Assembly (NCBI GenBank): GCA_049322915.1
Contig: JBMOPW010000032.1
Coordinates: 64,001 to 128,000, forward strand
From: Candidatus Zhuqueibacterota bacterium
Lineage (GTDB): Bacteria; Zhuqueibacterota; Zhuqueibacteria; Thermofontimicrobiales; Thermofontimicrobiaceae
DNA length: 64,000 nucleotides
Direction: 5' to 3'
Part shown: piece by piece, positions 11,826-33,497 of the stretch
How positions within the stretch are numbered: the first letter of the stretch is position 1
How the letters are laid out: the number at the start of each line of letters is the position of its first letter
Translations under genes and position numbers: made by a program
The notes under the pieces: model-generated
Seen by the model: the letters and a program-made list of their open reading frames with translations, nothing else
The model's database searches: none
What the model was told of the DNA's origin: nothing

Positions 11826-11867
11826 AAAATCAGAAAATATTACATAAAAGTTGAAATGATGAGTCCC

Positions 11868-11883
11868 TGGCATACGGATTGCA
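11868..11883 (+). promoter_or_regulatory. Sigma54 (-24/-12) promoter
   Basis: TGGCATACGGATTGCA, exact GG-N10-GC spacing, 60 bp upstream of the regulator gene. Confidence 0.65.
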
Positions 11884-11943
11884 TATTTAGCTTTGCTTCA
11901 CGAAAGATAACTAAAAGATGAACCCCAACTACAGCCATATTCA

Positions 11944-18560: not shown

Positions 18561-19211
18561 TCATTTCGATGTAACAAAAACGCTATCCACGACTGTTTTC
18601 TCAAGGTAGATCAATTTCATCACTGGCACTTCTTCCGGCACTTTATTGACCGGCAGGGGATGGTATTCCATCAGGCCCTGTTTATATCCCCACATTTCAA
18701 CGGACGTCACGTCTTCTGTTTGTTCCAGATGCATTTTAATGGGAATCCCTTTGTAGTTTCTGCGCAGGCCGCGCAACAGGGAAGCGAAAATTGCGCCCAT
18801 GGCTCGCACAGAATCCGGAGCGCTTTCGAATCGCTCCGGAGAGTCGTTGGAGTTGGCCGTGAATTTAACATTGCCGCCAAAGCTCCACAGATTCATTATT
18901 TTTTGAGCCTTGCTGCTTGGCGTGAGCAGGTAAATCCTACCGCCGGGGAATGTCCTGGCAATATCCAGCTCTCCGAACCCGTCGCCGGATAAATCGTAAA
19001 TGACCATTTTATCAATCTTATCCTCCGGGATCATGAAATCTTCCGCAAAGAAGTCGATGAGTTTTTTGTTGGTCACCGTTGTGGTTTGAACAATGGCCTG
19101 ATCGATTTGAATTTCCTGACTCTGTCCGAAGGCCTCAGCACCGAGAAAGGTGAAGAAGGCGAAAGCTGAGAGTCGTATCGCGACTTTGAATGATGTATGT
19201 TCTCGTATCAT
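18561..19211 (-). CDS. Secreted hypothetical protein
   Basis: Signal peptide ending AEAFG; DLSGDG Ca-binding-like motif; ATGA overlap with the upstream TPR gene. Confidence 0.75.
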   Translation of the reverse strand: MIREHTSFKVAIRLSAFAFFTFLGAEAFGQSQEIQIDQAIVQTTTVTNKKLIDFFAEDFMIPEDKIDKMVIYDLSGDGFGELDIARTFPGGRIYLLTPSSKAQKIMNLWSFGGNVKFTANSNDSPERFESAPDSVRAMGAIFASLLRGLRRNYKGIPIKMHLEQTEDVTSVEMWGYKQGLMEYHPLPVNKVPEEVPVMKLIYLEKTVVDSVFVTSK

Positions 19212-20680
19212 TGCTTGCTCCTGGTTTGTTTCCATTTGTTGAAATATTCTCTGGCTTCATCGTAAAGCCCGGCGCTTTTATGAGCGCGCACCATTAAGGA
19301 CAGCAGTTCATTGGTCTCATCTTCGGACAGGCCATTGGAATCGGCCAATGCTTTCTTCCCGTGAAAGATGGCCTGGTCCGGGTCGTTCCACAACAACGAG
19401 ACCAGCTCAATGTGGGCTTTGGCCCCCTGATCCCATTTGAACGAGGCGGCTTTGGTGAAATAGGCCAGCGCCAATTTTTTCTCCTGTTTGTCCCTGGCTT
19501 CAATCCCTAACCGATACAGCATGGCGCCATAGCTATCGAAAAATGGCTGAATTTCTTTCGCGGTCATTCCAAAATTTTCATAGTCCAGGGTTTCGTAGAC
19601 CAGCTTCATCCGTTCAACGGCCTGGGCCTTCTTGCCCAGGATTTCAAATTCGACAACGGCCAGCTTGTGAAAGACACTCATTTTCGCTTTTCGAGTCTGA
19701 AGCATGTTCAACAGACTCTCGCATGCCTGCGCCATGGCGTCATAGTTCTTTTCAGATTCCAGAGCGAGAATTTTATCGAACAATTCCGAGGCGCGGATAT
19801 TGCCGTCATCCCATTGAATCCATTTCACGTAATTTTCCAGGTCGGTTTTCTCCTGCGGCGTTCGAACAAATGGCTCGGCGACTTGAAACGCTTTGAGCGA
19901 GCGAGTATCGTCGTACATTCGGGCGTAGGCGTCGCCCTGGGCGTACATGTAGTAAAATAATTTGGATGTGTCGGGCGGCGTCTCAAAACTTGTCTTGAGC
20001 AACACTTTTTGGGCTTGCTGGAAATTGAGAAGCGCTTGTTCAAAATTTTTCACGGCCAATTGATTTTCAGCCAACAGCCTGAACAGTTCGTGTTCGCCTT
20101 TTTCAATGCGAGTGAGCCGCTCCAAAATTTCGATGGCTTTCTCATAATTTTTTTCAATTCCAAAAATGTGCTGCAAATTGTAATAGGCAACAGCCAGCAG
20201 GACACGGGCATTTTTATCAAAGGGATTGATTTTCACGGCTGCTTCAAGATGCTGCTGTGCCTGTTGGCAATAGGTCAGGGCCTCTTTTGCGCGTAATTCC
20301 CTTGTCCCGTTATTGGTCAGCTTTTTCCACTGGGACAGGTTTTGCGAGCCCAGATTCATCTCACGATCGAACTGCTTTTTATCTGCCGATGAAAGGCTCT
20401 TTTGATTTTTGATATCCTGCTCAAGGAATGTGCAGAACTCATCGACCTGATCCAGCCGCTTCTTTCCTTTCTGGGAAAATACATTGGCCTCGCCTTCCTT
20501 CTGAGCCGAAACAAAATTATTGTTCGCGGTTTCGATGGACAGAACAACTGTCGTGCTGTCCAGACCAGGCGGAATACTCAATTTCTTCACATGATTTCCC
20601 CCGGTGGTTGCGCAGCCGGAAAGGCCAATCAGCCACGCTCCCAACAATAATCTAATAAAAATGGAAATTGTCTGTTTCAT
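19208..20680 (-). CDS. TPR-repeat lipoprotein
   Basis: Lipobox LSG-C23; multiple TPR-like helical pairs (e.g. LEAAVKINPFD, YEKAIEILERL). Confidence 0.82.
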   Translation of the reverse strand: MKQTISIFIRLLLGAWLIGLSGCATTGGNHVKKLSIPPGLDSTTVVLSIETANNNFVSAQKEGEANVFSQKGKKRLDQVDEFCTFLEQDIKNQKSLSSADKKQFDREMNLGSQNLSQWKKLTNNGTRELRAKEALTYCQQAQQHLEAAVKINPFDKNARVLLAVAYYNLQHIFGIEKNYEKAIEILERLTRIEKGEHELFRLLAENQLAVKNFEQALLNFQQAQKVLLKTSFETPPDTSKLFYYMYAQGDAYARMYDDTRSLKAFQVAEPFVRTPQEKTDLENYVKWIQWDDGNIRASELFDKILALESEKNYDAMAQACESLLNMLQTRKAKMSVFHKLAVVEFEILGKKAQAVERMKLVYETLDYENFGMTAKEIQPFFDSYGAMLYRLGIEARDKQEKKLALAYFTKAASFKWDQGAKAHIELVSLLWNDPDQAIFHGKKALADSNGLSEDETNELLSLMVRAHKSAGLYDEAREYFNKWKQTRSKQ

Positions 20681-20785
20681 TTTTATTATTCACCTCCACG
20701 TTTGTACCTGAAACTATTTCGTTCGAATGTTACTTTTGCATCGGATGCCATGCCATCCATCGTTGAAAGGATGGCCCAATCGTCC

Positions 20786-21934
20786 TTACTTTTTGGATTG
20801 TGTTCTCCACCATGACCAGAAAATCTGGTAAAATGAAGCGGCGCGATCACCAGGCGCAGAACGCGAACTGATCAGCGATTTCATTTCATTCGCTTCGCGG
20901 ACGACATTGCCAATGGTGAGGTAGTTGCTTTCTTCCCGAATTCCGTTATCTTTCAACATCGTGTAATCATCGCTTTCTACGAGGCACACCCGAAGAAGCA
21001 TTTCGATTTCATTGCACGACAGCAGGAAATGATAGTGACGGCCGCTATAGGTGAAAGGAACGGCGGAGGATAAATCGCCGCTCTGATGACCCATCTCATA
21101 CGCAATGAGTTTCGGAATGGGGCCGGGGTGGGCTTTCATCCACTTTATCAATTCATGCAGATCGAGCGTCGCTGTGCCACCGCCGGACCCGGAAGGAAGG
21201 GAAATGCCAGCGCCAGAATTCGCTCCACCGCCTCGGGTCGTTCGACCGCCGCCTGCCCCGGAAAGTCCGGTACCTCCTGCGCCGGAACCAATGCCAGCGC
21301 CAAATCCTGAACCCTGGCCAGAGCCGGCGCCGGCGCCTGAACCTGCGCCATAGCCAGTCCCTGAACCGCCTCCGCCAAGGGTGACTTTCGGCCCGCTGGA
21401 GGTTCCGCTGCCACCTGACCGTCGTGACGGCGCCATGGATGAATTGCGATTTGTAATTTCACTGGATATGTTCAGATCATCATAACTTCTGCTAGACCGG
21501 GAGACATTGGTGGAGATGTTTGACGATTCAGTCTGCGAGCCGCCAGAGCCTCCGCGCTTGCCGGCTTTAGCCTCGCGGGAGATGAAATTTTTCATATCAA
21601 ATCCCTGAACAATCGAAGCGACGCTGATTTCAGATTTTGACTTTTGAACGGACGGTGCATTGTGTTTGCTCTGGACTCTGGTAGAACCTGCCGATTGCTT
21701 GCTGATGCGGATTTCATTTCTCGTTGTCGTGAGCATTTTTGGCGGCGTGAAGGTCAATTTAATCAGTTCCTTCATCTCCAACTTCACATCATTCAATTTC
21801 TGCTTTTCCGGTAGCATGGTAAACGAAAATATCTGAGCCATCAAATAAAGGAGCGCCAAGACTGTCAGAGTGATCAGCCCTGACAGTACATGCAGATTTT
21901 CCTGCCGGTTGATGTAATTAATTATAACTTTCAT
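20786..21934 (-). CDS. TonB/TolA-like single-pass protein with Gly-rich linker and unrecognised C-terminal domain
   Basis: N-terminal TM helix with a His (LHVLSGLITLTVLALLYLM); long Ser/Gly-rich linker; overlaps the end of the second exbD gene. Confidence 0.6.
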   Translation of the reverse strand: MKVIINYINRQENLHVLSGLITLTVLALLYLMAQIFSFTMLPEKQKLNDVKLEMKELIKLTFTPPKMLTTTRNEIRISKQSAGSTRVQSKHNAPSVQKSKSEISVASIVQGFDMKNFISREAKAGKRGGSGGSQTESSNISTNVSRSSRSYDDLNISSEITNRNSSMAPSRRSGGSGTSSGPKVTLGGGGSGTGYGAGSGAGAGSGQGSGFGAGIGSGAGGTGLSGAGGGRTTRGGGANSGAGISLPSGSGGGTATLDLHELIKWMKAHPGPIPKLIAYEMGHQSGDLSSAVPFTYSGRHYHFLLSCNEIEMLLRVCLVESDDYTMLKDNGIREESNYLTIGNVVREANEMKSLISSRSAPGDRAASFYQIFWSWWRTQSKK

Positions 21935-22316
21935 AGTTCAATGTCTTTTCTATTTTATTTCGATGACAAATATCAAACACATCGACTAATTTTTGCATGA
22001 TGCTTGATTTGTGCGGTTCAATGGTGATGATGAGTTTTTCATTGTACCTTTTGTAAAGATCGTTTTTGCTGACGAGCAGGTTTTCCAGATCTGATAAGGA
22101 TTGAACCTGAGTCGATTTGCCGCCGTCATCCAGCTTGAATGAGTTCTGGAAAATGGTGAGGCGGGCATCGTGGAACATGTATTTTACCGATTCATCCGAC
22201 ATGGCGGAGGACAGGTCCACGTAATCAGTTTTAAGCCGACTGATGTTGATGAAGCCCAACAGCACGATCAACGCCACATCGATGAGCCTGATCATCAGGC
22301 GCGTATTTGAATTCAT
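21918..22316 (-). CDS. ExbD/TolR-family protein (second copy)
   Basis: TM segment LIDVALIVLLGF with the conserved Asp; C-terminal SIMQKLVDVFDIC. Confidence 0.8.
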   Translation of the reverse strand: MNSNTRLMIRLIDVALIVLLGFINISRLKTDYVDLSSAMSDESVKYMFHDARLTIFQNSFKLDDGGKSTQVQSLSDLENLLVSKNDLYKRYNEKLIITIEPHKSSIMQKLVDVFDICHRNKIEKTLNYESYN

Positions 22317-22326
22317 AACTCCCTCT

Positions 22327-22731
22327 TCATTCTGTCATTGACGTCATAACATCCAGGCCTTTGGCGAGACCCAAATCCCGGCACAACCTGACGACGGCCA
22401 GGCCCTGCTCGACCGGCGAATCCCAGTCTGCGCGTATTCTAACGCCTAACACAGCGCCCTTGCTCTCCGCCTGTCGCGCTTTCTCGAATAAATAGTTCTG
22501 AAGCTGTTCAATGCGCGTCATGGTGAGCATCCCGCCATCAGCGTGATAGGTGCCATCATTCTTTACCCCGATGACAATGGTGTTAGCGTTCTCCGGCGCG
22601 CCTTCTGAGGCTTCCGTGCTCCTGGGCGGATCGATCAGCGTTGTCGTGTCGATTTGAGAAATGGCGATGAACCCGAAAAGGAGGATGAAGACGACGTCGA
22701 TCATCCGAATCATTAATGAAGTTTTGCCCAT
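22327..22731 (-). CDS. ExbD/TolR-family protein
   Basis: TM segment MIDVVFILLFGF with the conserved Asp; VRIRAD motif. Confidence 0.87.
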   Translation of the reverse strand: MGKTSLMIRMIDVVFILLFGFIAISQIDTTTLIDPPRSTEASEGAPENANTIVIGVKNDGTYHADGGMLTMTRIEQLQNYLFEKARQAESKGAVLGVRIRADWDSPVEQGLAVVRLCRDLGLAKGLDVMTSMTE

Positions 22732-22756
22732 AGAATGTGCCTTTTCATTTTTGTGC

Positions 22757-22797
22757 AAAAAAACGGCTCTCCCGAAAGTGGCATGCTTTCGGGAGAG
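22757..22797 (-). terminator. Intra-operon rho-independent terminator
   Basis: Perfect 12-bp stem CTCTCCCGAAAG/CTTTCGGGAGAG followed by CCGTTTTTTT on the minus strand. Confidence 0.75.
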
Positions 22798-22811
22798 TCA
22801 GTCGAACGAAT

Positions 22812-24791
22812 TTACTTCAGGTACAGAATTCGTTTGCTTGCTTTGAAATTATCTGTGGTCATCCGATAGAGATAGATGCCGCTGCCCAAATCCTGTCCGG
22901 CGTCGTTGCTGCCATCCCAGGTAATTGTATGAGCGCCGGCGTTTTGAACTCCGGAAACCAGACTTTTCACTTTTTGACCCATCAAATTGTAGATATCAAT
23001 TGTCACATTTCCTGTGTGATTCATGAAATAGGCGATGTTGGCTTTCCCATTGAATGGATTGGGATAGGCCGCGCCCAGATTATGTCTCTCAGGAAGATTC
23101 TCGTCTTTGGAAAAATCAGAAACAGAGGTGCTCGATGCGATTGCAGTCAGCGGACCGTAGAAGCTGGCGGTGCTTCCTGTGATTTCCACATCAGCGATTT
23201 TATAATAATAGGTTTGGCCGGATTCAACATCGGCATCTGTGAATGAATAATGATGCATCGCGGATGAGTTGCCCGAAACCGGGATCACTTCGGGATTGAC
23301 TATTTTGTATTCACCGTCAGCAGCGTCGCTGCGGTAAATGTCGTATCCCATATTTTCGGTCTCGGATTGGCTGGTCCAGTCTAGCATGATTCCGCCAAAG
23401 TGGAACACATATTTGAAAGAATCAATTTCAACGGTGACAAGGGGTTCGCGATCGGTCACAATGAATCCAAAATCGACGTCCAGTCTGGCTTCGCATTCGG
23501 CCAGAACAATCGGCGCGCTCGGATCAATGCTGGTGGTCAATGCGACATTGGTCTCGCTCATGTACGGGTGATCAATGTCGACAAAGTAGGTGCCGGCATT
23601 CAGATTCTGGAACAGATAAAAACCGAGTCGGTTGGTGCGCACGCTGTCCATGAAGGTATCAGCATCCGGCTCATACATATTATTGTCATTATCCTTGTAC
23701 AGCGAGACTTTTACTGAGGGAAGTCCAGCTTCCATCATATCACGAAGCCCGTTGGAATTTTTGTCATAGAAAATTCTATCGCCAATGCTGGCGCAGCCGG
23801 TCGCTTCGAGCGGAAGTTTGAACGCGATCATATTCCAGACGCCGCTCAGCGCTGGCAGTTGCGGATTGTCCATTTGAGATTCCAACTGGAAAGAAGCCCA
23901 GTCCTCTTCAGAACGCACCGGGACAAGAAATTCAACCATGGACCAGCGATGCCGAATTCCGATACCATCGGAAAGCGGATTGGTATCGATGGCGGGATCT
24001 GAATTGGACGAATTGATGTAATCCACGGCGCCTTGTGTATCAGCGATATTATCATCCGGTGTTGCGCCGAAGCCCATTTTGTACCAGATGGCCGATGCGC
24101 TGGCTCGTTCGTAGACGCCGGCAAATATTTTCACCGAACCCCATCGCTCGAAGCGGTTGCCTTCAATCGGGAAGGTCACTGTTTTGGTCAATGGAGGCTG
24201 GCTGGCAGCATTGAAATAATCCAGGCCATCAGCGATCCAGATATTCGATTCAGGCAGATTGGGCAGGCTGTAAATCGCCACAAGTCCGCCGCCGTAGATA
24301 CCGCCGCTGGTGGGACGAACCGGGAGTTGAATGTCGTCCACTTTATAACGGTGGTCGCCGAGTACTAAAACATCGCTCGCATCAGCGCGATAGGTGAAAT
24401 TCAACGTGGTTGCTTCCTGCGAATAGCCAATGCACGTCGCATTTTTCGTCACGGTGAGGCCTTCATCGTTGCTCAACGTGATGATGATGTCCGTGAGTTG
24501 CGCCGGAGTCACATTGGAGAACGCACTGAAATACACGTAGCCGGCGACAATTTCAGCATCTTCAGGAATTTTCATTAATGCAGTGGCTTCCCCGCGGAGG
24601 CCAAGTGAACCAAGACTGGTGACGCCAACATCATATTTACCGGTAAATACCGGCAGCGTAATGTTCAATTGTTCATTGCCATCAGCGTAGCCCATTGATG
24701 CAACAAATGTCACTGACATGAGCAAGCCGATTAGCCCCATGGCCACTTTCCGGCGCCATTTTCCTTTTTGTAACGTGTTAGACTTTTTCAT
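22812..24791 (-). CDS. Secreted multidomain protein with SdrD B-like domain and T9SS type-A/FlgD-like C-terminal domain
   Basis: Signal peptide; SIGDRIFYDKNSNG..EAGLPSVKVSLY; LDWTSQSETENMGYDIYRS; C-terminal YPNPFN..WDG..SGIYLYRM..K. Confidence 0.82.
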   Translation of the reverse strand: MKKSNTLQKGKWRRKVAMGLIGLLMSVTFVASMGYADGNEQLNITLPVFTGKYDVGVTSLGSLGLRGEATALMKIPEDAEIVAGYVYFSAFSNVTPAQLTDIIITLSNDEGLTVTKNATCIGYSQEATTLNFTYRADASDVLVLGDHRYKVDDIQLPVRPTSGGIYGGGLVAIYSLPNLPESNIWIADGLDYFNAASQPPLTKTVTFPIEGNRFERWGSVKIFAGVYERASASAIWYKMGFGATPDDNIADTQGAVDYINSSNSDPAIDTNPLSDGIGIRHRWSMVEFLVPVRSEEDWASFQLESQMDNPQLPALSGVWNMIAFKLPLEATGCASIGDRIFYDKNSNGLRDMMEAGLPSVKVSLYKDNDNNMYEPDADTFMDSVRTNRLGFYLFQNLNAGTYFVDIDHPYMSETNVALTTSIDPSAPIVLAECEARLDVDFGFIVTDREPLVTVEIDSFKYVFHFGGIMLDWTSQSETENMGYDIYRSDAADGEYKIVNPEVIPVSGNSSAMHHYSFTDADVESGQTYYYKIADVEITGSTASFYGPLTAIASSTSVSDFSKDENLPERHNLGAAYPNPFNGKANIAYFMNHTGNVTIDIYNLMGQKVKSLVSGVQNAGAHTITWDGSNDAGQDLGSGIYLYRMTTDNFKASKRILYLK

Positions 24792-24847
24792 GGTCCATCT
24801 CCTTAATTGTTAAAAGTGCGATTAGTTAGTATGTGCTGGTTGTATGT

Positions 24848-26215
24848 TTATCGAATCAGATTGAGCAAGCCCCGGTGAAGAACCTGATTTCCATCTGAAA
24901 TCATGAACAGGTAACATCCCGGCAGCATCAGGTTTCCTGCTTCATCGCGACCATTCCAGAATCGTTCGCCATTGGATAAATTTTTTATTTCAAGACCTGA
25001 CCTGTTCATAATCGAAATAACCCAGTTTGTTGGTGTTGTGTCGCCTTTTTTGAACTCGACCCAATCGTTGATCCCGTCGTCATTGGGCGTAAATGGATTC
25101 GGTGTGACTTCGATCTCCGGTTCATCCGGCGGTTCCTCCGGATCAATGGGTGGATCCGGTGGATCAGGCGGATCAGGTGGATCGACCGGCGGATCCACGG
25201 GCGGATCAATGGGAACAGTTTCGTACGGCGCGATGTAGCTGGATGTATCGGCGCTGGTGTTGGTGTTCACATTCACATCGATGCGAACGTAGCGTCGCTT
25301 ACCATCCTTTGCCGGATTGTGGGTCGAATAGGTGATCCGATAGCGATGGTGGAGGAGCTTGGAAATGGCTCGATAAATTTCCTCGAGATCGCTGGACGTG
25401 GGGCTGTAGTAATAAAGCCCACCGGATTGGTCAGCCAAATCTTTCAGAATATTTTCCTCCGGACTATTTGGATTCAAACCCAGTCCTATCGTGAAGACCC
25501 GAATCTCATGCGAAAGAATGGCAGTCAGCGCCTCGGCGTAGCTGTACTGGCTATCTTTGTCCGCGCCATCGGTCATCAAAATGATAGCTCTGTTTTTGAT
25601 GCTGCTGGTGAAAAGATAGACTGAATGGATCAGCGCATCGAATATGGCAGTCCCACCCATCGACTCCATCCGATTGATAGCCGCGTTGAGCGTATCTTTC
25701 ACGGTTGTAAAGTCACTGTCAGTCTGCGGCTGATGCGAGAAACTGACCAGGGCGGATTGGTCTTCACCCTGCATCAGATTCACGAACACGCTGGCGGCTT
25801 TCTTCGAATCTTCGATGGGCTGACCGCGCATACTGCCGCTTCGATCCAGCGTCAGAATCACGCTGAAGCCAATTTCATTCGACGTCAATTCTTCGACCAG
25901 AATGGGCAACTCCCGCGTATTGTCTTCCCTCACTTCAAAATTGTCTTCATCCAGTTCGCCGATGACAAAGCCGGCGTCGTTCGTGACAGTGACGAGGGAG
26001 ACGATTTTTGGGAATTCGGCGGCCGAAACCTCGTTATAGATTAACGTCAGACTATCCAGTTGAGTCGCCTGAATGATGCTGTCGTCCAGTTCAGCGCTCA
26101 CCGCCGGTGGGACCAGGTGTGTTTCGGTGATCCAGGCCGGGAAAAGCAGTATCACAACTGCCATTCCGATGAGGATAATCCGTCTGTTTTTGTATGTCCA
26201 ATATGTTGATTGCAT
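24848..26215 (-). CDS. VWA-domain protein with Pro-Asp linker and T9SS type-B (gliding-motility CHU_C) C-terminal domain
   Basis: MIDAS DRSGS..GGTA..TDG; C-terminal PNPFTPNDDGIND..NRSG..WNG..PGCY..GLLNLIR; alternative start 26281. Confidence 0.85.
   Translation of the reverse strand: MQSTYWTYKNRRIILIGMAVVILLFPAWITETHLVPPAVSAELDDSIIQATQLDSLTLIYNEVSAAEFPKIVSLVTVTNDAGFVIGELDEDNFEVREDNTRELPILVEELTSNEIGFSVILTLDRSGSMRGQPIEDSKKAASVFVNLMQGEDQSALVSFSHQPQTDSDFTTVKDTLNAAINRMESMGGTAIFDALIHSVYLFTSSIKNRAIILMTDGADKDSQYSYAEALTAILSHEIRVFTIGLGLNPNSPEENILKDLADQSGGLYYYSPTSSDLEEIYRAISKLLHHRYRITYSTHNPAKDGKRRYVRIDVNVNTNTSADTSSYIAPYETVPIDPPVDPPVDPPDPPDPPDPPIDPEEPPDEPEIEVTPNPFTPNDDGINDWVEFKKGDTTPTNWVISIMNRSGLEIKNLSNGERFWNGRDEAGNLMLPGCYLFMISDGNQVLHRGLLNLIR
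25118..25213 (-). repeat. Coding tandem repeat encoding the DPP linker
   Basis: PIDPPVDPPVDPPDPPDPPDPPIDPEEPPDEP. Confidence 0.8.
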
Positions 26216-26264
26216 GATCACTGCACCTTTGTTTGCTGAAGGCAATTTTAAAAAAAGAGTTACA

Positions 26265-27197
26265 TTAATAATTCGTTTCATAAGCCATGCCCATCGAGCG
26301 ATCGACGCGCGGTTTCTTCTGTGTCTGATAGTTCATCTCAATGGTTTGAATTTCCATATCGCTTTCTTCCATTTGGCTGGATTGCGTCGATGGCCCTTTG
26401 TTTTCGTGTATCAGTAAAACCTGACGAATCGCTTCAGAGCGCTCGGATAGCTGATTGAGTTGAGCATTGAACATTGTGAAAAGATAGGTTGAGAAAAAGT
26501 TCAGCGCGATACTGATGACAATTCCGACCAGCGTGGTGACGAGAGCGATACTCATCCCCTGAAGAATTGTGGGGCCGTCCATTTTTCCCGAATGGAAGGT
26601 CAGGAATATCCCCCACACAGTACCTAACAAGCCCAAAGCTCCCGATGTATCGGAAAGATAATTGATGATCCGGTTGAACGATTCGAACGAGTCCCGTTCT
26701 GATGCCACAAATTTATTGACGTCATTTCCAATGGGTTCGGCGCGATGGGTTTTTTCGAATGTCACCAGTATCTGATGAAAAAGACGCCATGCCCGCGTGG
26801 GATTCTTGCCCTGACTCATGCGCAATATCCGTTTCAAATCGTTGAGTTTAATTTTTCCCTGCATCAGGACTTGTGAGCGGGATTTATCCCGATACTCGAA
26901 CAAAGCCCGGTAGCTAATGAGCATGATTCCGCCTGCCGTGATCAATACAAATGGCCAGAAGGTCCAGTCGCACCATTCAATTAGTTTCCAGGCAGTCAGT
27001 TTGGCGCCTTGTTCCGATTGGACTGTCGCAGTGCTGTTGACGGCTTTCTGAGCTTCGGCTGTGGTGCGGGTTGTTTGTTTTGCATTGGCCTGCATGGGAG
27101 TCAAACTGATGAGCAGTCCGCTCACTCCCAAAATCACGACGGACACAACCCATGTGAAGAATGACTTTCTGTTGTTGCTGCCTATGTGCTTTTCCAC
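26265..27197 (-). CDS. MotA/TolQ/ExbB proton channel protein
   Basis: GLLGTVWGI and ALVTTLVGI motifs; three TM helices after an N-terminal signal-like segment. Confidence 0.9.
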   Translation of the reverse strand: MEKHIGSNNRKSFFTWVVSVVILGVSGLLISLTPMQANAKQTTRTTAEAQKAVNSTATVQSEQGAKLTAWKLIEWCDWTFWPFVLITAGGIMLISYRALFEYRDKSRSQVLMQGKIKLNDLKRILRMSQGKNPTRAWRLFHQILVTFEKTHRAEPIGNDVNKFVASERDSFESFNRIINYLSDTSGALGLLGTVWGIFLTFHSGKMDGPTILQGMSIALVTTLVGIVISIALNFFSTYLFTMFNAQLNQLSERSEAIRQVLLIHENKGPSTQSSQMEESDMEIQTIEMNYQTQKKPRVDRSMGMAYETNY

Positions 27198-27257
27198 GAT
27201 GTATCTCCTCTTTTTCAGAATGAATGAGTACTTTATATTAGCAAAAAAATTAATTTC

Positions 27258-28955
27258 TTATGGCGCCATTTTATTGACCTGTAAATTTTTCTCCTGCTTG
27301 AATTGGAGAACGACTGTCCGATTGATTCGCGTTACCGTCACTTTTTTCGATGGAGACGATTTGGCTTGGCCCCGCAATGATTTGATTGATAAGTCGCAGG
27401 TATACTCACCAGCGGGAACCAGTTCGCCCCAGTTGTCTTTCCAATCCCATAGCAGTTGCTCGGGCAGCTTCTCCGTTCCCCGAATTGTGCGAATGGTTTT
27501 ATTGTGACTGTTTTTAATTTCCAGGGTCCACTCTTTGACCTGCCGCACACGGCCGCTCACCATCGGTGAGATAGAAAGATGTTCGTGCGAACAGCGGGGC
27601 TTGCTGTGCGACTGATTCTCCTGGCCGGAGTAAAAGCCTGTCAGACTGACTGTCCCGGTGGAGTTGAGCGAGGCCACGCCAACCCGGTCGCCGGAGACGA
27701 TTCCGTTCTTTTGCAGATAAGATTTCAAAGCTCGCGCATCTTCCATTGAGGATTCTTCTGTTTGAAGAATGAGGCTCAGGCCGGGATGTTGTTTCAATTT
27801 ATTCCGAATTTCAATTCCTAATTTGACGTGTCGTTCCTGGCGAATTTTTAGAGTCTCGGAAGGACTCAATGGGCCGGTCGGGACGATGAGCAGATTTCGA
27901 AATGCGCCATCAGTTTTCAGATACTCCGGCGCTAACTCTGCAATGTGTTCTAATTGAGAAGGATACAGATCCGCCGGCATGCTTCGCACCACCTTCTCCT
28001 CGAAAATTTGCATGAACGGGGTCGAGAGAAGCAATTCCGGCTCACCGATATCCGGTCCCCGATCGAAGATATGCGTGTAAATGGCCTCGTGAGAACCCAT
28101 GGAAACAGCGGCCATATTCTGGCGGGGTAAATCTAAACCGTATTGAAGTTTGTTGTTTTCCGAAAGGCTGAACTGAATTTCCATTTTAAAGGGCATGGTA
28201 TTTTCAAATGACAATTGCACAAGTCCCCAGCCTTCGCGCTGGAGCGAAACAGCCAGACCATAATGCACATTCATTCCGTCATTTTGCAGAAGCACGGTCG
28301 GGGTAATATAACCGAAGCTGTAACCGACTGCTGCGGAGATTTCCCGCAGTAGCGGCGCCGCAGTCTGATAACCCATGTCCGGCTGATTTACATGGTTGAC
28401 GCCTATGCCGATGCTCCAATTGCCGGGATTCCAAAATGCGCCCATGCCGAAATTAAGGCCATTTTTACCCAGGCTGCCGGCGAGCAACGGATCGATTGCA
28501 TGCGCCTCGGAAAAATTGTCGCGGGAAAAACCAAATCTTACCAGACCAATTTTCAGTCCAACACCCAACTGGGATGCAATTTTCCGACTGACGAGAAGCG
28601 AGCTGTTCAATTCCGAATAAATGCCAGCCGAATAGTATCGCAGATCAGCGCCCAGCCCCAGTTCCAGCGGCAGTAAAAACGGAAAACTAACGCTGACATG
28701 ACTTTCGTTGATGCCGAAAGAGTTATCCGGCACAAAACCAATGTGAAATGAGCGTATTCCGAGAGAGACCTGACCATATTGAAATGAAACCATGGCCGGA
28801 TTCACTTCCGAAATCCAGGGATGGGATTTTCCAACGACATTGTTAATGTCGTAGGTTTGCGCATCGACAGCGGTGTTCAGGATTGCAGTGAGCATGAACA
28901 GAGCGAAGCATGCAACAAGGGCAAACTTTATCATTGTTAATTTCTTATTCAGCAT
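27258..28955 (-). CDS. PorP/SprF-family outer membrane barrel fused to a degenerate OmpA-like region and a FlgD-like Ig domain
   Basis: NPA; DPLL; GIGVNHVNQP; YGLD..GSHE..F; then LKQHP..ARALKSYL..GI; then WTLEI..WDWKD..GELVPAGEY. Confidence 0.75.
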   Translation of the reverse strand: MLNKKLTMIKFALVACFALFMLTAILNTAVDAQTYDINNVVGKSHPWISEVNPAMVSFQYGQVSLGIRSFHIGFVPDNSFGINESHVSVSFPFLLPLELGLGADLRYYSAGIYSELNSSLLVSRKIASQLGVGLKIGLVRFGFSRDNFSEAHAIDPLLAGSLGKNGLNFGMGAFWNPGNWSIGIGVNHVNQPDMGYQTAAPLLREISAAVGYSFGYITPTVLLQNDGMNVHYGLAVSLQREGWGLVQLSFENTMPFKMEIQFSLSENNKLQYGLDLPRQNMAAVSMGSHEAIYTHIFDRGPDIGEPELLLSTPFMQIFEEKVVRSMPADLYPSQLEHIAELAPEYLKTDGAFRNLLIVPTGPLSPSETLKIRQERHVKLGIEIRNKLKQHPGLSLILQTEESSMEDARALKSYLQKNGIVSGDRVGVASLNSTGTVSLTGFYSGQENQSHSKPRCSHEHLSISPMVSGRVRQVKEWTLEIKNSHNKTIRTIRGTEKLPEQLLWDWKDNWGELVPAGEYTCDLSIKSLRGQAKSSPSKKVTVTRINRTVVLQFKQEKNLQVNKMAP

Positions 28956-29462
28956 GGTGGTCTCGTCGTTTTGGATGAAATCCCTGCATTTCTTCTTGTA
29001 CTTTCGAGCGGCTTGTTTCAGGGGAAGGCTCACTCGTTTTGGTACTGTCTCAGGCAAGAAGAATACCAGTTTATGCTGTTGTCTATTTAAGTATACAAAA
29101 TTTTTGCTGGTTGCCAGATTGGGATGTGGATTAAATCATCATTTTTAGTGAATTATGAACTGATAGAATTTTCAAGAAAAATGGAGGTCTGAATCAGCAT
29201 GAGGAAAAATAATCCGGGCTTGTGGTGTTCCAAAACCTATTTTGGTAAACAAGTTTGAAATTTGAATTACAAAAAAGGAAAAATATTGGGAGAGTTTTTG
29301 GTTGGAAAATAATTTATTGCGGACAAACCATAGTGAGAGCGACCTGAGTATGGGGAAGCGCTCCGTTCGAACAGCTTGAAAGCGTTTCTCCGCTGCTGGC
29401 AAAGACGCTGATTTGGCTAGTGAGAGTCCTGATTCGATGGGGTGCATCGAGGTTTCGCCGAT

Positions 29463-29501
29463 AAAAAAAACGCTCCCTGGTATTCGACCGGGAGCGTTTT
29501 T
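29463..29501. terminator. Terminator after the M14 peptidase pair
   Basis: AAAAACGCTCCC..GGGAGCGTTTTT inverted repeat with A/T tracts. Confidence 0.75.
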
Positions 29502-29521: not shown

Positions 29522-31333
29522 TTATTTCAACACAATCTCTTTTTGATGAACTCCGCCCTTTTGACAATCCAATTTCACCTGAACCTTTCCGCCGCCCTCG
29601 ACGAGAAATTCATACTGGACTTCGGCGTTGCCGGGTATGCCCCGTGTGAGCTTCAGGTTTTTCAGATCCTTTTGATCGATAAGGGTCACATCGCTATCCT
29701 CAGCTTCGAGAAAGTAACGCCGAAATTGAGCCGGTACACTGCTGAATCGCGAGGCCTTATTGAGGCCGGCGGCCATAACTTTCACGTTTCCATCGATGGA
29801 TAGCTGATCCGGTCGCTGCACTTTTCGCTCGATGGCGGCCGCGGACATGGTGGGCATGAGCCGCTCGTTGTAAATGCTCACGTTCAGTTTGAAAAGATTG
29901 TTCGCCAATTTTTCGTAACTCAATTCTTTGATAACTGGCAGAGGCATTTCATACGCATGCAGCAGGCAGAAAGCCATGTTGCGGTGGCATAGCTCCTCCA
30001 GCAGCCAGGTGGGCGGCACGCGACCGCTCAGCTTGGTCTCGTCGCGATCGATCGTCACTTTTCCTAACTGCGGGTGATTGATGTCGTGCATTGGAATAAA
30101 TATATTTTGCATGTCAATATATTTGTCGAAAAATTCTCGCTCCTCCTGAGTGTCCTCGCCATTGTTGTCGAAATCAGCGCGGGATGTCCACAACTCGTTG
30201 GAATAGGAATAAATGCCAAGCAGGTCATGGGTGAAATCAATGAATCCACCCCAGACGGAATAGAGTCCGCTCCAGATGACGATGTAGCGGTACTTGTCAA
30301 TAATTTTTTCACCCTTCTTGCCAATTTCATCATAGACTGAGACATCGGCGCGTTGATACTCGCCGTGCAATTCAACGCCCGGGCCTCGTAGAATCATCCC
30401 GCCGGAATTGTGAAACGCCTGCACCCCGGCGATGTTGGGATGCGAATACAGAAAATCGCGGGTGCGCTGCGATTCGATCCAGGTGAATGGATAATCACCG
30501 GCGCCTCCCTGAATCGATTTCGGTTGCCAGAATGAAGCGAAATCGCGATTGGGATCGTAACCGCCACCGCCATCTTCATTGTATCGCCCATCGCCATCGT
30601 TATCGATACCCTCGGAACCGATAAATTTGTAGTCGCCCACCTCATCTTTTTTACCTTCAATGTTTTTTTGAATGGGCACCAGCCGATCCCCAATATCGCT
30701 CAATCGATGCGTCCCTTGTCCGGGTTGAACCTTCATGAACATGGAGCCGACTTCTCCGTCGTTATCCAGATCCTCCGGGCCATCTTCGTCGTAGAGACCG
30801 TCGTCGTCGCTGTCATATGGATATTGCCCGGAACGCGCCGATGCGCCGTTGTGCAGCCACAGGTCTCTCCCATCGGGATTGACAGATGGAAAAATGTAAA
30901 ACACCCGCTGGTCGACCATCTTTTTCACGTATTCGTTATAGGGATAATTTTCCATCAGGTACCAGATGGTATAGAGACAGACCTCGCCGCCCTGAATTTC
31001 GTTGCCATGAATGTTGGCGTCGATGTACATGGCGCTCTTTTTCATTTCATCGCCTGTGTCCGGATTGTTGATGGTCATGTACCACATCTCCCGCCCCTGA
31101 AATGATGTGCCAATGGACCGCAGTTTGAGAAATTTGGGATAGGCCTGTTCCAGTTTTCGAAGCGCAGCTTCCATCTCTTTCCAATCATGATACCGATTGA
31201 ATTGAAGATCGACGTTTCGTGTTTTCCATGTGCGCGGAAGGTAGTCCTGAGCCGGCAGCGTGGCGGCGCTCATCATCGCCACCATAGCCAGGAGAAGAAT
31301 GCGATGTATAAGATGTGTTGTTTTTAATTTCAT
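29522..31333 (-). CDS. M14 zinc carboxypeptidase (secreted)
   Basis: IHGNE, NPDG, NRDF, AFHN and SNELW motifs; DxDxDG insert. Confidence 0.9.
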   Translation of the reverse strand: MKLKTTHLIHRILLLAMVAMMSAATLPAQDYLPRTWKTRNVDLQFNRYHDWKEMEAALRKLEQAYPKFLKLRSIGTSFQGREMWYMTINNPDTGDEMKKSAMYIDANIHGNEIQGGEVCLYTIWYLMENYPYNEYVKKMVDQRVFYIFPSVNPDGRDLWLHNGASARSGQYPYDSDDDGLYDEDGPEDLDNDGEVGSMFMKVQPGQGTHRLSDIGDRLVPIQKNIEGKKDEVGDYKFIGSEGIDNDGDGRYNEDGGGGYDPNRDFASFWQPKSIQGGAGDYPFTWIESQRTRDFLYSHPNIAGVQAFHNSGGMILRGPGVELHGEYQRADVSVYDEIGKKGEKIIDKYRYIVIWSGLYSVWGGFIDFTHDLLGIYSYSNELWTSRADFDNNGEDTQEEREFFDKYIDMQNIFIPMHDINHPQLGKVTIDRDETKLSGRVPPTWLLEELCHRNMAFCLLHAYEMPLPVIKELSYEKLANNLFKLNVSIYNERLMPTMSAAAIERKVQRPDQLSIDGNVKVMAAGLNKASRFSSVPAQFRRYFLEAEDSDVTLIDQKDLKNLKLTRGIPGNAEVQYEFLVEGGGKVQVKLDCQKGGVHQKEIVLK

Positions 31334-31398
31334 GTTATTATTCCTCCAGATGGTGTAGACAGATAAAAGTTACCGATGATTTTGACCCAACGGATTGG

Positions 31399-33318
31399 TT
31401 ATGGTAGCTTCACCGTTGTCTGAAATTCTCCGCCACCCTGGCGAGCCCAAAGCGCGATATCAACTTTCTGGCCCGGCGGAGAAATGATAATCCACGTGTA
31501 TTCTTTTTCAGCGCCGGCTTCCAGATTGTTCAGATCGTATCGTTTCTGGCCTCCGAAAAGTTTCATGTCCTTTTCGTTTTCGAATTTCAATCGGGTCACA
31601 ATCGGATACAGGTTTCGACTCTTCTGCCCCATCTCCGTCGCGTAAGGAAATTTTCCAGTGTTGCGAAGGGTGACCTTCACTTCGTACAGGTTAGTGGATA
31701 ATTTCCTGGTTTGCGGCGCATCCATTTTTATTTCAGCAAACTGGGATGCGAGATACAGCGCGAATTTGGTGTGACTCTGACAGAGGGAATCGATGAGAGC
31801 GGAAGGGGCGTTTGTTCGGATGTACGGATAGAACCCGCCAATTTCCACGTCGCCAAGCTGCTGATGCTGAAATGTTTTCCACGGCAGGAAGCCAATGCCA
31901 TTGTTCTTCTCATCGACCCATTTCAGCCATCGCTGGTCAGTTCCGCTCGCATCGGCTTTTTCGCCTTCCGCGCCGGCCGGGCGCGCGCCGGGGAAGGTGC
32001 GCATGCCACCGCGTCGACCCGAGGGTCGCTGCTGTTCAGCGTCGGAATTTTCGCCGTCGCTTCCTTTAGGTTCAGGCTTGTCGTTTTTCTCGTTTCGCAG
32101 TGACCACAAATTGCACGAAAAAGCCGGTACGCCATATTGAAAATACGCCCACTCCAGCATGGAACCGAATGGCTTGTCCGACACCGCAGTTTCAATTTTG
32201 GTCAGCTCTTTGTATTTCTTACTGACCTGATTGAACAGTGGCAGGTCTTTGTCATCGGTCTTCTGCGGCTGAGGATCCTGGGCCCGGGGTCGGGACGTTT
32301 CCTGTTCAGAGCCCCGGCGGCGTCCGAAACGGACGAACATTTGAGACTCTTGTTCATCGGATCTTTTTACTTCGGCAAACGAGGCTTTGCCGCATTCAAT
32401 GCCGGCCGAGGCTGCTAAATTATCGTATTTTGAAAAAATCAAAACGCTGCAAATGTTCTTGTGCGGCGAAGTTTTCAGCTCTGGTATGTAGCGATTCATG
32501 AAATCAATCACTGCGCGGGTCTCGGCTTCCGACGCCGGGTATATGTTCAATCCTTTTATGTCATAGCCGAAATTGTGGGGGAAATTCCGATTGATGCTCA
32601 TGCCGGCGATACCGTCCTCATTGTATAACTCATCTCCGTCATTGTCAATTCCCTCGGGATAGACGCTGTATAGGCTGTCCATAGGCGTCTCCGGTTTTTT
32701 GGGATTCAAAAGACGGCTGTCTTTGCCGTTCAAAACCCAGGCGCCTTTTTTATCTTTCACCCGCATCCACGTGATGAGCTTGTTCCCGTCCAGGTCTTCC
32801 GGGCCATCTTCATCGAGCTGCCAGTCGTAATCATCGTCGACTTGCTTAATGTTTCCCTGGACATCGGACAATGTTCCGGCAAAGAACATTTCTGCACCGT
32901 CCGGATTGACTCTCGGAATAATGTAAAATGTTCGCGAGTCCAGAATGGCTGTAATTTCCTGATCTGAGCCATAGCCCGCAGCCAGCGTTTTAGCGATGCC
33001 CAGTGCCACTTCGCTGCCGATGACGTGATCCCCTTCCAGATTCCCGCACAGGAGCAGCGCCTGCTTTTGTTCCGGCGCCATGCCTTTTTCGCCGGAGAGT
33101 TGCAGCATCCAGATATCGCGTCCCTGACCCGTCGTTCCAATGGACGAGAGCCGGGTTATTTTGGAATAGCGCGTTGACAGCTCTTTCAGCGCCTGAGTTA
33201 GCTCTTTGTAATTGTGATACCCTGCCGATGGCGCATAACTGTCATTCGCTGCTAAGGATGTGAACGAAGTGAGCGCGAGAATGAAACAGGTGAGAATGCA
33301 TGTTAAAATCAGTTTCAT
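31399..33318 (-). CDS. M14 carboxypeptidase homolog, probably catalytically altered or inactive
   Basis: NPDG and NRNF retained, but HxxE is EGDH, the third Zn His is absent (IFSKY) and the catalytic Glu position is Asn (SCNLW). Confidence 0.82.
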   Translation of the reverse strand: MKLILTCILTCFILALTSFTSLAANDSYAPSAGYHNYKELTQALKELSTRYSKITRLSSIGTTGQGRDIWMLQLSGEKGMAPEQKQALLLCGNLEGDHVIGSEVALGIAKTLAAGYGSDQEITAILDSRTFYIIPRVNPDGAEMFFAGTLSDVQGNIKQVDDDYDWQLDEDGPEDLDGNKLITWMRVKDKKGAWVLNGKDSRLLNPKKPETPMDSLYSVYPEGIDNDGDELYNEDGIAGMSINRNFPHNFGYDIKGLNIYPASEAETRAVIDFMNRYIPELKTSPHKNICSVLIFSKYDNLAASAGIECGKASFAEVKRSDEQESQMFVRFGRRRGSEQETSRPRAQDPQPQKTDDKDLPLFNQVSKKYKELTKIETAVSDKPFGSMLEWAYFQYGVPAFSCNLWSLRNEKNDKPEPKGSDGENSDAEQQRPSGRRGGMRTFPGARPAGAEGEKADASGTDQRWLKWVDEKNNGIGFLPWKTFQHQQLGDVEIGGFYPYIRTNAPSALIDSLCQSHTKFALYLASQFAEIKMDAPQTRKLSTNLYEVKVTLRNTGKFPYATEMGQKSRNLYPIVTRLKFENEKDMKLFGGQKRYDLNNLEAGAEKEYTWIIISPPGQKVDIALWARQGGGEFQTTVKLP

Positions 33319-33497
33319 ACCGATGCCTCCATTTATAATGAAGTGTGAATGAGGATTTAATCCATGATAAAAGATAAAACGTGATTCTATGAAAAACAAG
33401 CGATATCTATTTGTCTCTGCGCAGGATGCACGTCAGGAAGAGCCGGAACATGGATGCATGAAAAATTGATATAACGAGTTGTTTCAGCGAGAGGGGA

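Follow-up and report, generated by a model that had tools for sequence, protein, structure and literature searches.

Organisation of the locus

The locus described here occupies positions 18561-28955 on the minus strand of a 64,000-nucleotide stretch of DNA (hereafter the window) from an uncultured KSB1 bacterium and is composed of nine co-oriented genes, g1 to g9 (Table 1), with overlaps of 17 nt between g2 and g3, 17 nt between g6 and g7, and 28 nt between g8 and g9. The initial annotation had listed nine co-oriented, partly overlapping genes with these assignments, and the coordinates, strand and profile searches confirm the list except for the label "TonB-like" given to g7, which is true of the topology of this protein only, because a TonB_C domain was not found.

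Table 1. Genes and regulatory elements of the locus, in the direction of transcription (positions refer to the window)
Feature	Position	Strand	Basis
Sigma-54-type -24/-12 element, TGGTAT-N5-TTGCC, upstream of g1	29053..29068	-	pattern match
g1, PorP/SprF-like outer-membrane barrel + tail fusion	27258..28955	-	PF11751, weak FlgD-Ig at C-terminus
g2, ExbB/TolQ-family proton-channel subunit, short form, 310 aa	26265..27197	-	PF01618
g3, VWA protein with Pro-rich linker and type-B T9SS CTD (cargo/adhesin)	24848..26281	-	VWA, CHU_C, TIGR04131
g4, DUF3344/SdrD_B protein with type-A T9SS CTD (second cargo)	22812..24791	-	SdrD_B, Por_Secre_tail, TIGR04183
GC-rich hairpin, 12-bp stem, then T-run, between g4 and g5	22767..22797	-	terminator-like site
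g5, ExbD/TolR-family subunit 1	22327..22758	-	PF02472, 48.1 bits
g6, ExbD/TolR-family subunit 2	21918..22316	-	PF02472, 23.5 bits; paralogue of g5
g7, inner-membrane-anchored periplasm-spanning protein, proposed force transducer	20786..21934	-	no family
g8, TPR lipoprotein	19208..20680	-	TPR_19, 41.1 bits, and other TPR families
g9, secreted (periplasmic) protein	18561..19235	-	signal peptide, no family

The barrel and its cargo

The 565-aa product of g1 clears the cut-off of the PorP_SprF profile PF11751 (48.6 bits against 22.3) while remaining under that of NCBIfam TIGR03519 (57.6 against 90.55 bits), and a type-B CTD gene adjoins the barrel gene in most loci; the barrel is best described as PorP/SprF-like. 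Proteins of this family are usually single-domain barrels of about 300 aa, a form from which g1 departs: in the 599-aa ORF the match to the barrel stops around residue 326 and gives way to a tail of about 270 aa, consisting of a helical region and then a FlgD-like Ig domain (weak match). Such a tail follows the barrel in 25/25 aligned g1 homologues, and fusions of roughly 570-615 aa are kept across phyla.

The cognate type-B cargo of g1 in the window is g3, two genes downstream. This protein combines a VWA domain (70.5 bits), with a DRSGS sequence that we take to fit the MIDAS pattern, and a type-B CTD at residues 394-477 of 477 (TIGR04131, 35.6 bits for a cut-off of 35; CHU_C PF13585, 39.5 for a cut-off of 27). 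In g4, SdrD_B (52.3 bits) and Por_Secre_tail (43.6 bits) matches are accompanied by a type-A CTD at residues 576-656 of 659 (TIGR04183, 46.9 bits for a cut-off of 23). In the window, exbB and exbD are separated by an insertion of VWA/type-B and type-A cargo genes, and g3-type genes are present in one to three copies per orthologous locus. In the commoner cassette, found in most relatives, the gene just upstream of the PorP fusion encodes an FG-GAP/Ig type-B cargo, and the form with the VWA/SdrD insertion is derived and lineage-specific, at the family level. The sigma-54-type element, which occurs twice in the window where 0.45 matches would be expected by chance, was found upstream of the PorP gene in 9/11 VWA-type orthologous loci and upstream of the cargo gene in 0/16 loci of the basic type.

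The motor subunits and the periplasmic proteins

The product of g2 matches MotA_ExbB (57.2 bits) and, when aligned to E. coli TolQ, keeps the threonines of TM2 and TM3 (GLLGTVWGI and ALVTTLVG), the ExbB TM2 motif being present in 55/55 family sequences. The two ExbD/TolR-family subunits, the first of which likely has its true start at the ATG at 22731, are clear paralogues, and a separate second copy is kept in most loci. Each bears an Asp in its TM helix (RMIDV in g5, RLIDV in g6), as do 57/59 ExbD1 and 48/49 ExbD2 family sequences; the misses correspond to one truncated ORF and to RYIDI variants, where the Asp is still there. The earlier claim of intact motor residues holds. The profiles that the initial annotation had named (PorP_SprF, CHU_C/TIGR04131, TIGR04183, MotA_ExbB and ExbD) all match, ExbD doing so in g5 and falling slightly below its cut-off of 25.4 bits in g6.

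A stem similar to that of the g4/g5 hairpin, CCTCCCGA...TCGGGAGG, is found at the equivalent place in 6/7 loci examined, the window copy being the only one with a clear T-run after it. The hairpin is possibly an attenuator or an RNA-processing element; it may split transcription of the operon, which counts against reading the genes as a self-contained module.

In g7, a TM helix at the N-terminus is followed by Pro/Lys-rich and Gly-rich stretches and by a conserved domain of about 125 aa at the C-terminus, and the invariant columns of the family are W, D, G and FY..F..WW. No Pfam or NCBIfam family, TonB_C included, matches it at E up to 0.01, and its structure model (pLDDT 86.5) found no clear match among solved folds, with a best Z of 5.7. 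The family amounts to 275 representative clusters among 1.84 billion. The topology is TonB/TolA-like; the anchors of TonB and TolA carry a motif with a His, and this residue is not conserved in g7. Gene order and topology are what suggest that g7 may be coupled to ExbB/ExbD. The remaining two proteins are g8, in which an LSGC lipobox can be read, and g9, which has an invariant D..G....D loop, no family in Pfam/NCBIfam profile searches and a structure model (pLDDT 83.2) for which the fold search gave no match.

Conservation across loci and genomes

Sixty-five loci seeded on g7, with lineages as labelled in database records, were compared. The PorP fusion, ExbB, two ExbD, g7, the TPR protein and g9, that is, all seven core parts, occur together in 36/65, and most of the loci short of the full set are interrupted by contig ends. 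Taken individually, PorP is present in 52, ExbB in 55, two or more ExbD in 53, a type-B CTD in 50, g8 in 54 and g9 in 56. These loci belong to KSB1, Calditrichota, Balneolales/Balneolaceae/Cyclonatronaceae, Melioribacteraceae and other lineages, meaning that the genes are co-conserved across phyla, and the synteny was seen also in 20 loci from related genomes. There are two kinds of exceptions. Five loci have cargo, PorP, g7, g8 and g9 without ExbB or ExbD, so the motor genes need not lie in cis. In four Rhodothermales loci, ExbB, g7, g8 and g9 occur without PorP, the link to PorP being therefore not universal; in the only one of these examined, genes for DUF4402, CarboxypepD_reg and a Plug fragment adjoin.

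The source genome, whose close relatives are metagenome bins only, has a second copy of the module, whose type-B cargo is 1527 aa long. Copies number from 1 to about 5 per genome and, where there are several, the adhesin differs from copy to copy; copy number tracks type-B cargo genes and not SprA. Among 41 related genomes, SprA is present in 40 and g7 in 21, while type-B CTDs above the curated cut-off occur in 14, all 14 of which are g7-positive; type-B cargo is, in this sample, restricted to module-bearing genomes, with most of the corresponding genes directly upstream of a PorP fusion. The cluster therefore appears as an accessory module for type-B cargo and not as a general engine of type IX secretion.

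Relation to type IX secretion

The genome search for T9SS genes that the initial annotation had proposed gave a divided picture. The source genome encodes SprA (SprA_N, 145.5 bits in a 2034-aa ORF), PorV (258 bits, cut-off 250), two PorU (869 and 819 bits) and about 200 type-A CTD matches; GldL, GldM_1st and GldN profile searches gave no match and the best GldK score was 128 bits, below the cut-off of 350, so that neither a GldL/GldM motor nor a GldK/GldN ring was recovered. It could be proposed that the module replaces GldKLMN as the general energiser of secretion through SprA wherever GldL/GldM are absent. The gene order porP-porK-porL-porM-porN would be paralleled by that of the module. In addition, GldL and GldM_1st were found in 0/41 related genomes, although these lineages may lie beyond the reach of the models, and both match in one shared set of 9/41 genomes of a control sample; GldL exceeded its cut-off in 0/29 g7-positive genomes from other phyla. 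However, in the 29 high-quality related genomes SprA is present in 29/29 and g7 in 17/29, with four entire families (f4, f5, f7 and f9) having SprA and no g7 match, which argues against the cluster replacing the complete GldKLMN engine. Moreover, copy number follows type-B cargo instead of SprA, and in the control sample, where 25/34 SprA-positive genomes are without GldL and GldM, g7 occurs in only 2/25. Such a replacement is unlikely.

Proposed function and alternatives

The explanation that we hold, with moderate confidence, to be the correct one is that a Ton/Tol-like motor acts on a PorP-anchored adhesin, forming a self-contained accessory envelope module of several FCB-group lineages. 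In the proposed mechanism, an ExbB/TolQ-type proton channel in the inner membrane and a heterodimer of the two ExbD/TolR paralogues would convert proton-motive force into mechanical work, which g7, with its inner-membrane anchor, extended Pro/Lys- and Gly-rich linker and family-specific C-terminal domain, would transmit across the periplasm in the manner of TonB/TolA. The target of the force would be the periplasmic tail of the PorP/SprF-like outer-membrane barrel, with the TPR lipoprotein g8 and periplasmic g9 probably serving as scaffold. The barrel would hold a surface adhesin through the type-B C-terminal domain, the VWA protein here and an FG-GAP/Ig protein in most relatives, and the motor could thereby load, release, tension or move it. 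In the window lineage, the operon would be driven by the sigma-54 promoter. From gene content and synteny we infer all physical contacts, the direction of force and the cell-surface outcome. The explanation is favoured by the domain matches, the conserved linkage, the intact motor residues and the confinement of type-B cargo to module-bearing genomes. Against it stand the missing TonB_C domain, the unmatched fold and the non-conserved His of g7, the loci lacking ExbB and ExbD or lacking PorP, the g4/g5 hairpin, and the sub-cut-off scores of g6 and of the barrel with TIGR03519.

One sub-case of this explanation is a surface-motility machine (gliding/focal adhesion), convergent with Agl-Glt or SprB movement, in which the motor would translocate the PorP-held adhesin along the cell. 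In Flavobacterium, the mobile adhesin SprB is held by carriers of the PorP/SprF type (PMC9143113). The parts list, in which one TolQ-like and two TolR-like proteins are accompanied by a TPR protein, an extended periplasmic protein and an adhesin of VWA or integrin-like FG-GAP type, fits such a machine, as does the presence of several copies with different adhesins. Nevertheless, the analysis identified neither a track nor a cytoskeletal component, g7 is devoid of the TonB_C domain that GltG carries, and gliding is not mentioned in the KSB1 papers searched. Motility is held to be an unlikely outcome of the module.

In another reading, the cluster would be a Tol-Pal-like envelope-maintenance paralogue (TolQ, TolR, TolA-like and CpoB-like TPR proteins) that merely adjoins surface-protein genes. 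TolQ is indeed the best solved relative of g2, tolQ and tolR are the best NCBIfam matches (31 and 24.8 bits, far under the cut-offs of 221 and 127), and there is a likeness to TolA and CpoB in the topology of g7 and in the TPR lipoprotein. Besides, the T9SS-associated PorE has been argued to consist of Tol-Pal-like parts (PMC12204202). Yet TolB and Pal/OmpA families match none of the nine genes, and the linkage to PorP fusions and type-B cargo is tight and specific. Furthermore, the module is missing in 12/29 high-quality relatives and multi-copy in others, which makes it a poor fit to a housekeeping system, and this reading is considered very unlikely.

Still less probable, to the point of being extremely unlikely, is an ordinary Ton system serving TonB-dependent nutrient transporters. 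ExbB with two ExbD is a common Ton operon layout in the FCB group, and the Plug-domain fragment beside ExbB in the Rhodothermales relative would agree with it. The nine proteins, however, gave no match to the TonB-dependent receptor and Plug families; canonical MotA_ExbB genes number seven elsewhere in the source genome, and next to one of these lies a TonB (contig C4) that does match TonB_C; and the linkage to PorP and cargo is conserved. The initial annotation had made its interpretation depend on co-conservation of the genes, on the PorP/SprF nature of the barrel and on a motor not dedicated to ordinary TonB use, and none of the three points turned out against it. Its proposal of an undescribed, pmf-driven apparatus for surface display, adhesion or motility is supported and still provides the best fit. 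A literature search found no description of a motor operon paired with a PorP anchor and an adhesin cargo, and this pairing of motor, outer-membrane anchor and adhesin may be a new way to power cell-surface proteins.

Comparison with known systems

The SprB/SprF and PG1035/PorP pairs of the Bacteroidota T9SS share with this locus the proximity of a PorP_SprF barrel gene to a gene for adhesin-type cargo with a type-B CTD. They differ in that about 270 aa of conserved periplasmic tail extend the barrel here, an ExbB/ExbD-type motor is encoded together with the pair, as are g7, g9 and a TPR lipoprotein, and the carrier genomes have no GldL or GldM match. The likeness to Ton systems, including the FCB-type exbB-exbD-exbD-tonB arrangement, lies in an ExbB with TM threonines and two ExbD with TM Asp, after which comes an inner-membrane protein with one membrane pass and an extended, Pro-rich linker. 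In contrast to TonB, g7 has neither a TonB_C domain nor a clear fold match, and what it would act on in the outer membrane is a PorP-like barrel instead of a TonB-dependent transporter. With regard to Tol-Pal, the difference is that TolB and Pal are not encoded among the nine genes.

The Agl-Glt machinery of Myxococcus xanthus offers a parts-list analogy only (TolQ-like, two TolR-like, periplasmic coupler, TPR, barrel(s) and VWA adhesin), whereas the outer-membrane and cargo parts are here of T9SS type (PorP, type-B CTD) and the carriers belong to the FCB group, not to Myxococcota. Finally, the GldLM/PorLM-PorKN-PorP core likewise encodes a proton-driven inner-membrane motor together with a lipoprotein, a periplasmic protein and a barrel of the PorP family. 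GldN and GldM domains were not found in the source genome, where the best GldK score is below the cut-off, and the motor belongs to the ExbB/ExbD family and not to GldL/GldM; unlike that core, the module is an accessory one present in multiple copies, and its distribution follows type-B cargo and not SprA.

Architecture of the cassette

The nine tightly packed genes that the initial annotation had read as a hybrid of a PorP/SprF barrel, type IX secretion system (T9SS) cargo and an ExbB/ExbD/TonB-like motor were all recovered, and are here called g1 to g9. Neighbouring reading frames overlap by 17 nt (g2/g3), 17 nt (g6/g7) and 28 nt (g8/g9). Profile scans with Pfam and NCBIfam bore out the gene labels given to them, that of g7 only in part, and assigned no family to g7 or g9. 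The cargo genes g3 and g4 end in type-B and type-A C-terminal sorting domains (CTDs), respectively. The motor residues were also intact, as had been stated: the transmembrane (TM) helix Asp is present in both ExbD paralogues (RMIDV in g5, RLIDV in g6), and alignment of g2 with E. coli TolQ showed that both TM threonines are retained. Family-wide, the two ExbD motifs were conserved in 57/59 and 48/49 sequences and the ExbB TM2 motif in 55/55. Among PDB sequences, a profile search with the PorP fusion gave a weak FlgD-Ig match, and phmmer searches with g5 and g6 gave nothing useful.

Features of the cassette, its flanks and other loci discussed in the text (scores in bits; window positions unless a contig or locus is named)
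Feature	Position	Strand	Description
Cassette g1-g9	18561-28955	minus	
g1, PorP fusion		minus	PorP_SprF 48.6, cut-off 22.3; NCBIfam TIGR03519 57.6, below cut-off 90.55
g2, ExbB		minus	MotA_ExbB 57.2
g3, VWA/type-B		minus	VWA 70.5; type-B CTD: CHU_C 39.5, TIGR04131 35.6 (cut-off 35)
g4, SdrD_B/type-A		minus	DUF3344; SdrD_B; type-A CTD: TIGR04183 46.9 (cut-off 23)
g5, ExbD		minus	ExbD 48.1
g6, ExbD		minus	ExbD 23.5, slightly below cut-off 25.4; clear g5 paralogue
g7, Gly-rich protein		minus	
g8, TPR lipoprotein		minus	TPR repeats; LSGC lipobox read off the sequence
g9, secreted/periplasmic protein		minus	
Sigma-54-type -24/-12 element, TGGTAT-N5-TTGCC	29053-29068		upstream of g1
Second sigma-54-type element	11868-11883		just 5' of the sigma-54 activator gene at 11944
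GC-rich hairpin (CCTCCCGA...TCGGGAGG type), then T-run	22767-22797	minus	between g4 (last cargo gene) and g5 (first exbD)
Histidine kinase and sigma-54 activator genes	9288-13302	plus	
Two tandem M14 genes	29522-33399	minus	upstream of the operon
Intrinsic terminator	~29476-29492		end of the M14 gene nearer the operon
sprA locus of the window's genome (L101)	C4:92550-101576		
g8 paralogue cluster of the window's genome (L102)	C20:238908-243349		
Rhodothermales chromosomal locus	L095:281-11871		PorP-less form

Conservation and forms of the module

The module is real and widely conserved. Of 41 related genomes, 23 have full-length homologues of the PorP fusion, commonly in several copies each, and the expected co-conservation of the genes was found, the cassette order being kept after the PorP fusion in 20 fetched regions. 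Close relatives bear the title candidate division KSB1 (Zhuqueibacterota). A motif scan seeded with g7 yielded 65 loci titled KSB1, Calditrichota/Caldithrix, Balneolales/Balneolaceae/Cyclonatronaceae, Melioribacteraceae, Rhodothermales and, in one case, a Gemmatimonadota-labelled bin, these taxa being the depositors' record titles, with several "Cytophagia" labels on contigs that also belong to the sample of KSB1 relatives. All seven core parts (PorP fusion, ExbB, at least two ExbD, g7, g8 and g9) were present in 36 of the 65 loci; taken singly, the PorP fusion was present in 52, ExbB in 55 and two or more ExbD in 53. Five loci had PorP, g7, g8 and g9 without ExbB or ExbD, four Rhodothermales loci had ExbB, g7, g8 and g9 without PorP, and many of the remaining loci stop at contig edges. 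The motor-less satellite loci (n=5) and the Rhodothermales loci without PorP point to g7-g8-g9 as a modular core, able to use motors in common and to switch clients.

In the common form of the cassette, the first gene encodes a large protein of FG-GAP/Ig/CARDB type that bears a type-B CTD; next come the PorP fusion, a long ExbB whose C-terminus carries Big_1 domains, two ExbD and g7-g8-g9. A second copy, of this form, lies on contig C7 of the window's own genome; its cargo has 1527 aa, and it lacks the TPR gene. The form found in the window has a short ExbB, and its exbB and exbD are separated by an insertion of one to three VWA/type-B genes plus a type-A gene; it is limited to the window's family and near relatives. 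A complete set of the seven core parts is present in Balneolaceae bacterium ANBcel3 (L084), by title not a metagenome bin.

Several loci depart from these arrangements. The satellite loci (L044, L048, L053, L061 and L066) hold type-B cargo, the PorP fusion, g8 and g9, with no exbB/exbD, L044 stopping short of g8 and g9; their g7, called in L044, L048, L053 and L066, has 414-430 aa and is longer than usual. The one Rhodothermales locus inspected (L095) contains g9, three DUF4402 genes, a 776-aa protein, a CarboxypepD_reg protein, a Plug-domain fragment, ExbB, g7 and g8. Domains are shuffled in loci of other KSB1 families (L019-L021, L039 and L041), where a VWA protein has a type-A-like tail and the type-B CTD lies on a separate protein of ~290-320 aa. 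Three tandem g8 TPR paralogues of ~495 aa each are located in the window's genome away from both motor clusters.

Relation to type IX secretion

A search of the window's genome (6.25 Mb, 96% complete) for sprA and porV, which had been proposed as a check, found both. With these, two PorU genes and about 200 tblastn matches to the type-A CTD of g4, the genome possesses a type IX system on its outer-membrane side. GldL, GldM_1st and GldN were without a match in this genome; for GldK there were only weak matches of the FGE-sulfatase type, and the neighbourhood of the best of them (contig C34) held no gldKLMN-like operon. The genome also encodes nine MotA_ExbB proteins, seven of them canonical.

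If the cassette replaced GldKLMN as a general T9SS engine, it would be predicted to track SprA. The 41 related genomes (G000-G040, 29 of high quality) were compared with a control of 41 genomes (G041 and G046-G085) from the phylum of a Rhodothermales carrier. SprA was found in 40/41 related genomes, 29/29 high-quality ones and 34/41 controls, and g7 in 21/41, 17/29 and 2/41. GldL scored over cut-off in nine of the 41 control genomes, GldM_1st matched in the same nine, and neither matched in any related genome (0/41; 0/29 high-quality). Both g7-positive control genomes were negative for GldL/GldM, 25 SprA-positive control genomes were without both GldL and GldM, and SprA was present with no g7 match in four whole families of relatives (f4, f5, f7 and f9). 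The predicted tracking is thus absent (SprA 29/29 against g7 17/29 in high-quality genomes), and the replacement reading is unlikely. Type-B CTDs over cut-off occurred in 14/41 related genomes, all of them g7-positive, and most of the sub-threshold type-B matches adjoining a PorP fusion likewise fell in g7-positive genomes, the single exception noticed being G003, a genome 56% complete. Because g7 follows type-B CTDs and not SprA, the module is accessory, tied to type-B cargo and its carrier.

After sprA, the window's genome has an M28 peptidase-family gene, whose start we take to resemble glutaminyl cyclase, and then a canonical exbB-exbD-tonB set. The latter was considered as the T9SS motor and rejected as a general account: the sprA-M28 pair was kept in 13/16 related loci and the exbB-exbD-tonB adjacency in just 3/16.

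Outside the classical Bacteroidia, no GldL/GldM match was obtained in many FCB genomes that do encode SprA, PorV and PorU along with hundreds of CTD proteins. Either the breadth of the GldL/GldM models is insufficient, or SprA operates in many FCB lineages without a GldL/GldM motor. The cassette bears on the energy source of type IX-like secretion and of surface display in such GldL/GldM-negative genomes.

The g7 and g9 proteins

The description of g7 as TonB-like holds for its topology, a TM helix followed by an extended linker, and fails for its C-terminus, which gave no TonB_C match. The linker comprises Pro/Lys-rich and Gly-rich stretches and leads to a conserved C-terminal domain of ~125 aa, predicted with confidence (pLDDT 86.5). 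Foldseek searches of the PDB with this domain returned nothing at E up to 0.001, and a wide VIA-align comparison found no clear solved counterpart, the best Z of 5.7 being in the noise range; the TonB_C and TolA-III folds were missing from the matches listed, an absence that does not exclude them. With 275 representative clusters among 1.84 billion, the family is a small, specific one, and its domain is almost invariably C-terminal in proteins of ~350 aa.

For the g9 fold, Foldseek against the PDB gave nothing, and profile searches of PDB sequences with g7 and g9 produced just spurious antibody-linker matches. The ESM Atlas look-alikes of both proteins all scored <0.9 and serve as leads only. 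A complex prediction with the PorP tail, g9 and the g7 C-terminal domain scored 0.01 against a mark of 0.32, a result that weighs neither way.

Regulation and flanking genes

The TTG at which the longest ORF begins is overlapped by the sigma-54-type element upstream of g1, so that the ATG at 28955 is the likelier start of g1. Such an element lies upstream of the PorP gene in 9/11 VWA-type loci and upstream of the cargo gene in 0/16 basic-type loci; in the window, the pattern occurs twice, against 0.45 expected by chance. A hairpin stem similar to that between g4 and g5 was found at the same position in 6/7 loci inspected, and the hairpin may attenuate transcription into the motor genes.

Elsewhere in the window, the gene of an NtrC-type sigma-54 activator comes after that of a histidine kinase bearing FG-GAP repeats. 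As candidate dedicated regulators, this kinase and sigma-54 response regulator were absent from the fetched flanks of the orthologous KSB1 loci. Four other loci (L057, L059, L073 and L076), two of them titled Calditrichia or Calditrichaeota, also have a sigma-54 activator gene close to the cassette. The two M14 genes encode zinc carboxypeptidases and are syntenic in a same-genus relative; the terminator at the end of the nearer one is strong.

Proposed mechanism

In the simplest mechanism, inferred down to its contacts, ExbB and an ExbD1/ExbD2 heterodimer would form a proton-driven stator and g7 would span the periplasm, as TonB and TolA do. Its family-specific C-terminal domain would engage the periplasmic tail of the PorP-like barrel, either directly or via g8 and g9, while the barrel would hold the type-B CTD of the adhesin. 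The transmitted force could load, release, tension or move this adhesin. More boldly, the cassette could represent an unrecognised class of trans-envelope machine, in which a Ton/Tol-type 5:2 motor actively moves or pulls a PorP-held adhesin through the new transducer g7, a reading that we consider tentative and rather improbable. If true, each adhesin would in effect have its own independent, modular motor, giving surface motility or force-dependent adhesion to FCB lineages without GldLM; judging by the Rhodothermales form without PorP, the g7-g8-g9 core of the cassette could be re-plugged to further clients in the outer membrane.

Comparison with known systems

Full-text searches of the openly accessible literature found the cassette nowhere described. 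Term look-ups in PMC11683472, PMC9012183, PMC12204202 and PMC11205867 likewise gave no description of it; in the two KSB1/Zhuqueibacterota papers (PMC11683472 and PMC9012183) they did not yield T9SS, TonB, gliding or adhesion. The passages of PMC12204202 consulted discuss PorE as a Tol-Pal-like fusion and do not cover the cassette. The module is apparently undescribed so far, and the interpretation first put forward, of an undescribed pmf-driven envelope apparatus mixing two parts lists, is supported in outline. It is also open to testing, the L084 carrier not being, by title, a metagenome bin.

To our knowledge, energy of the inner membrane reaches the outer membrane by only a few routes (Ton, Tol-Pal, Agl-Glt, GldLM/T9SS and flagellar stators), to which the cassette would bring two novelties: its transducer protein and, as client, a PorP-type carrier together with the adhesin. 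The cassette does not belong to the Ton system, having no TonB_C domain and no transporter, nor to Tol-Pal, since TolB and Pal are absent, nor to the canonical T9SS core, since GldK, GldL, GldM and GldN are absent. Its inner-membrane half would work in the manner of a Ton or Tol system and its outer-membrane half in that of the SprB/SprF or PG1035/PorP pair, and its parts list is similar to that of Agl-Glt.
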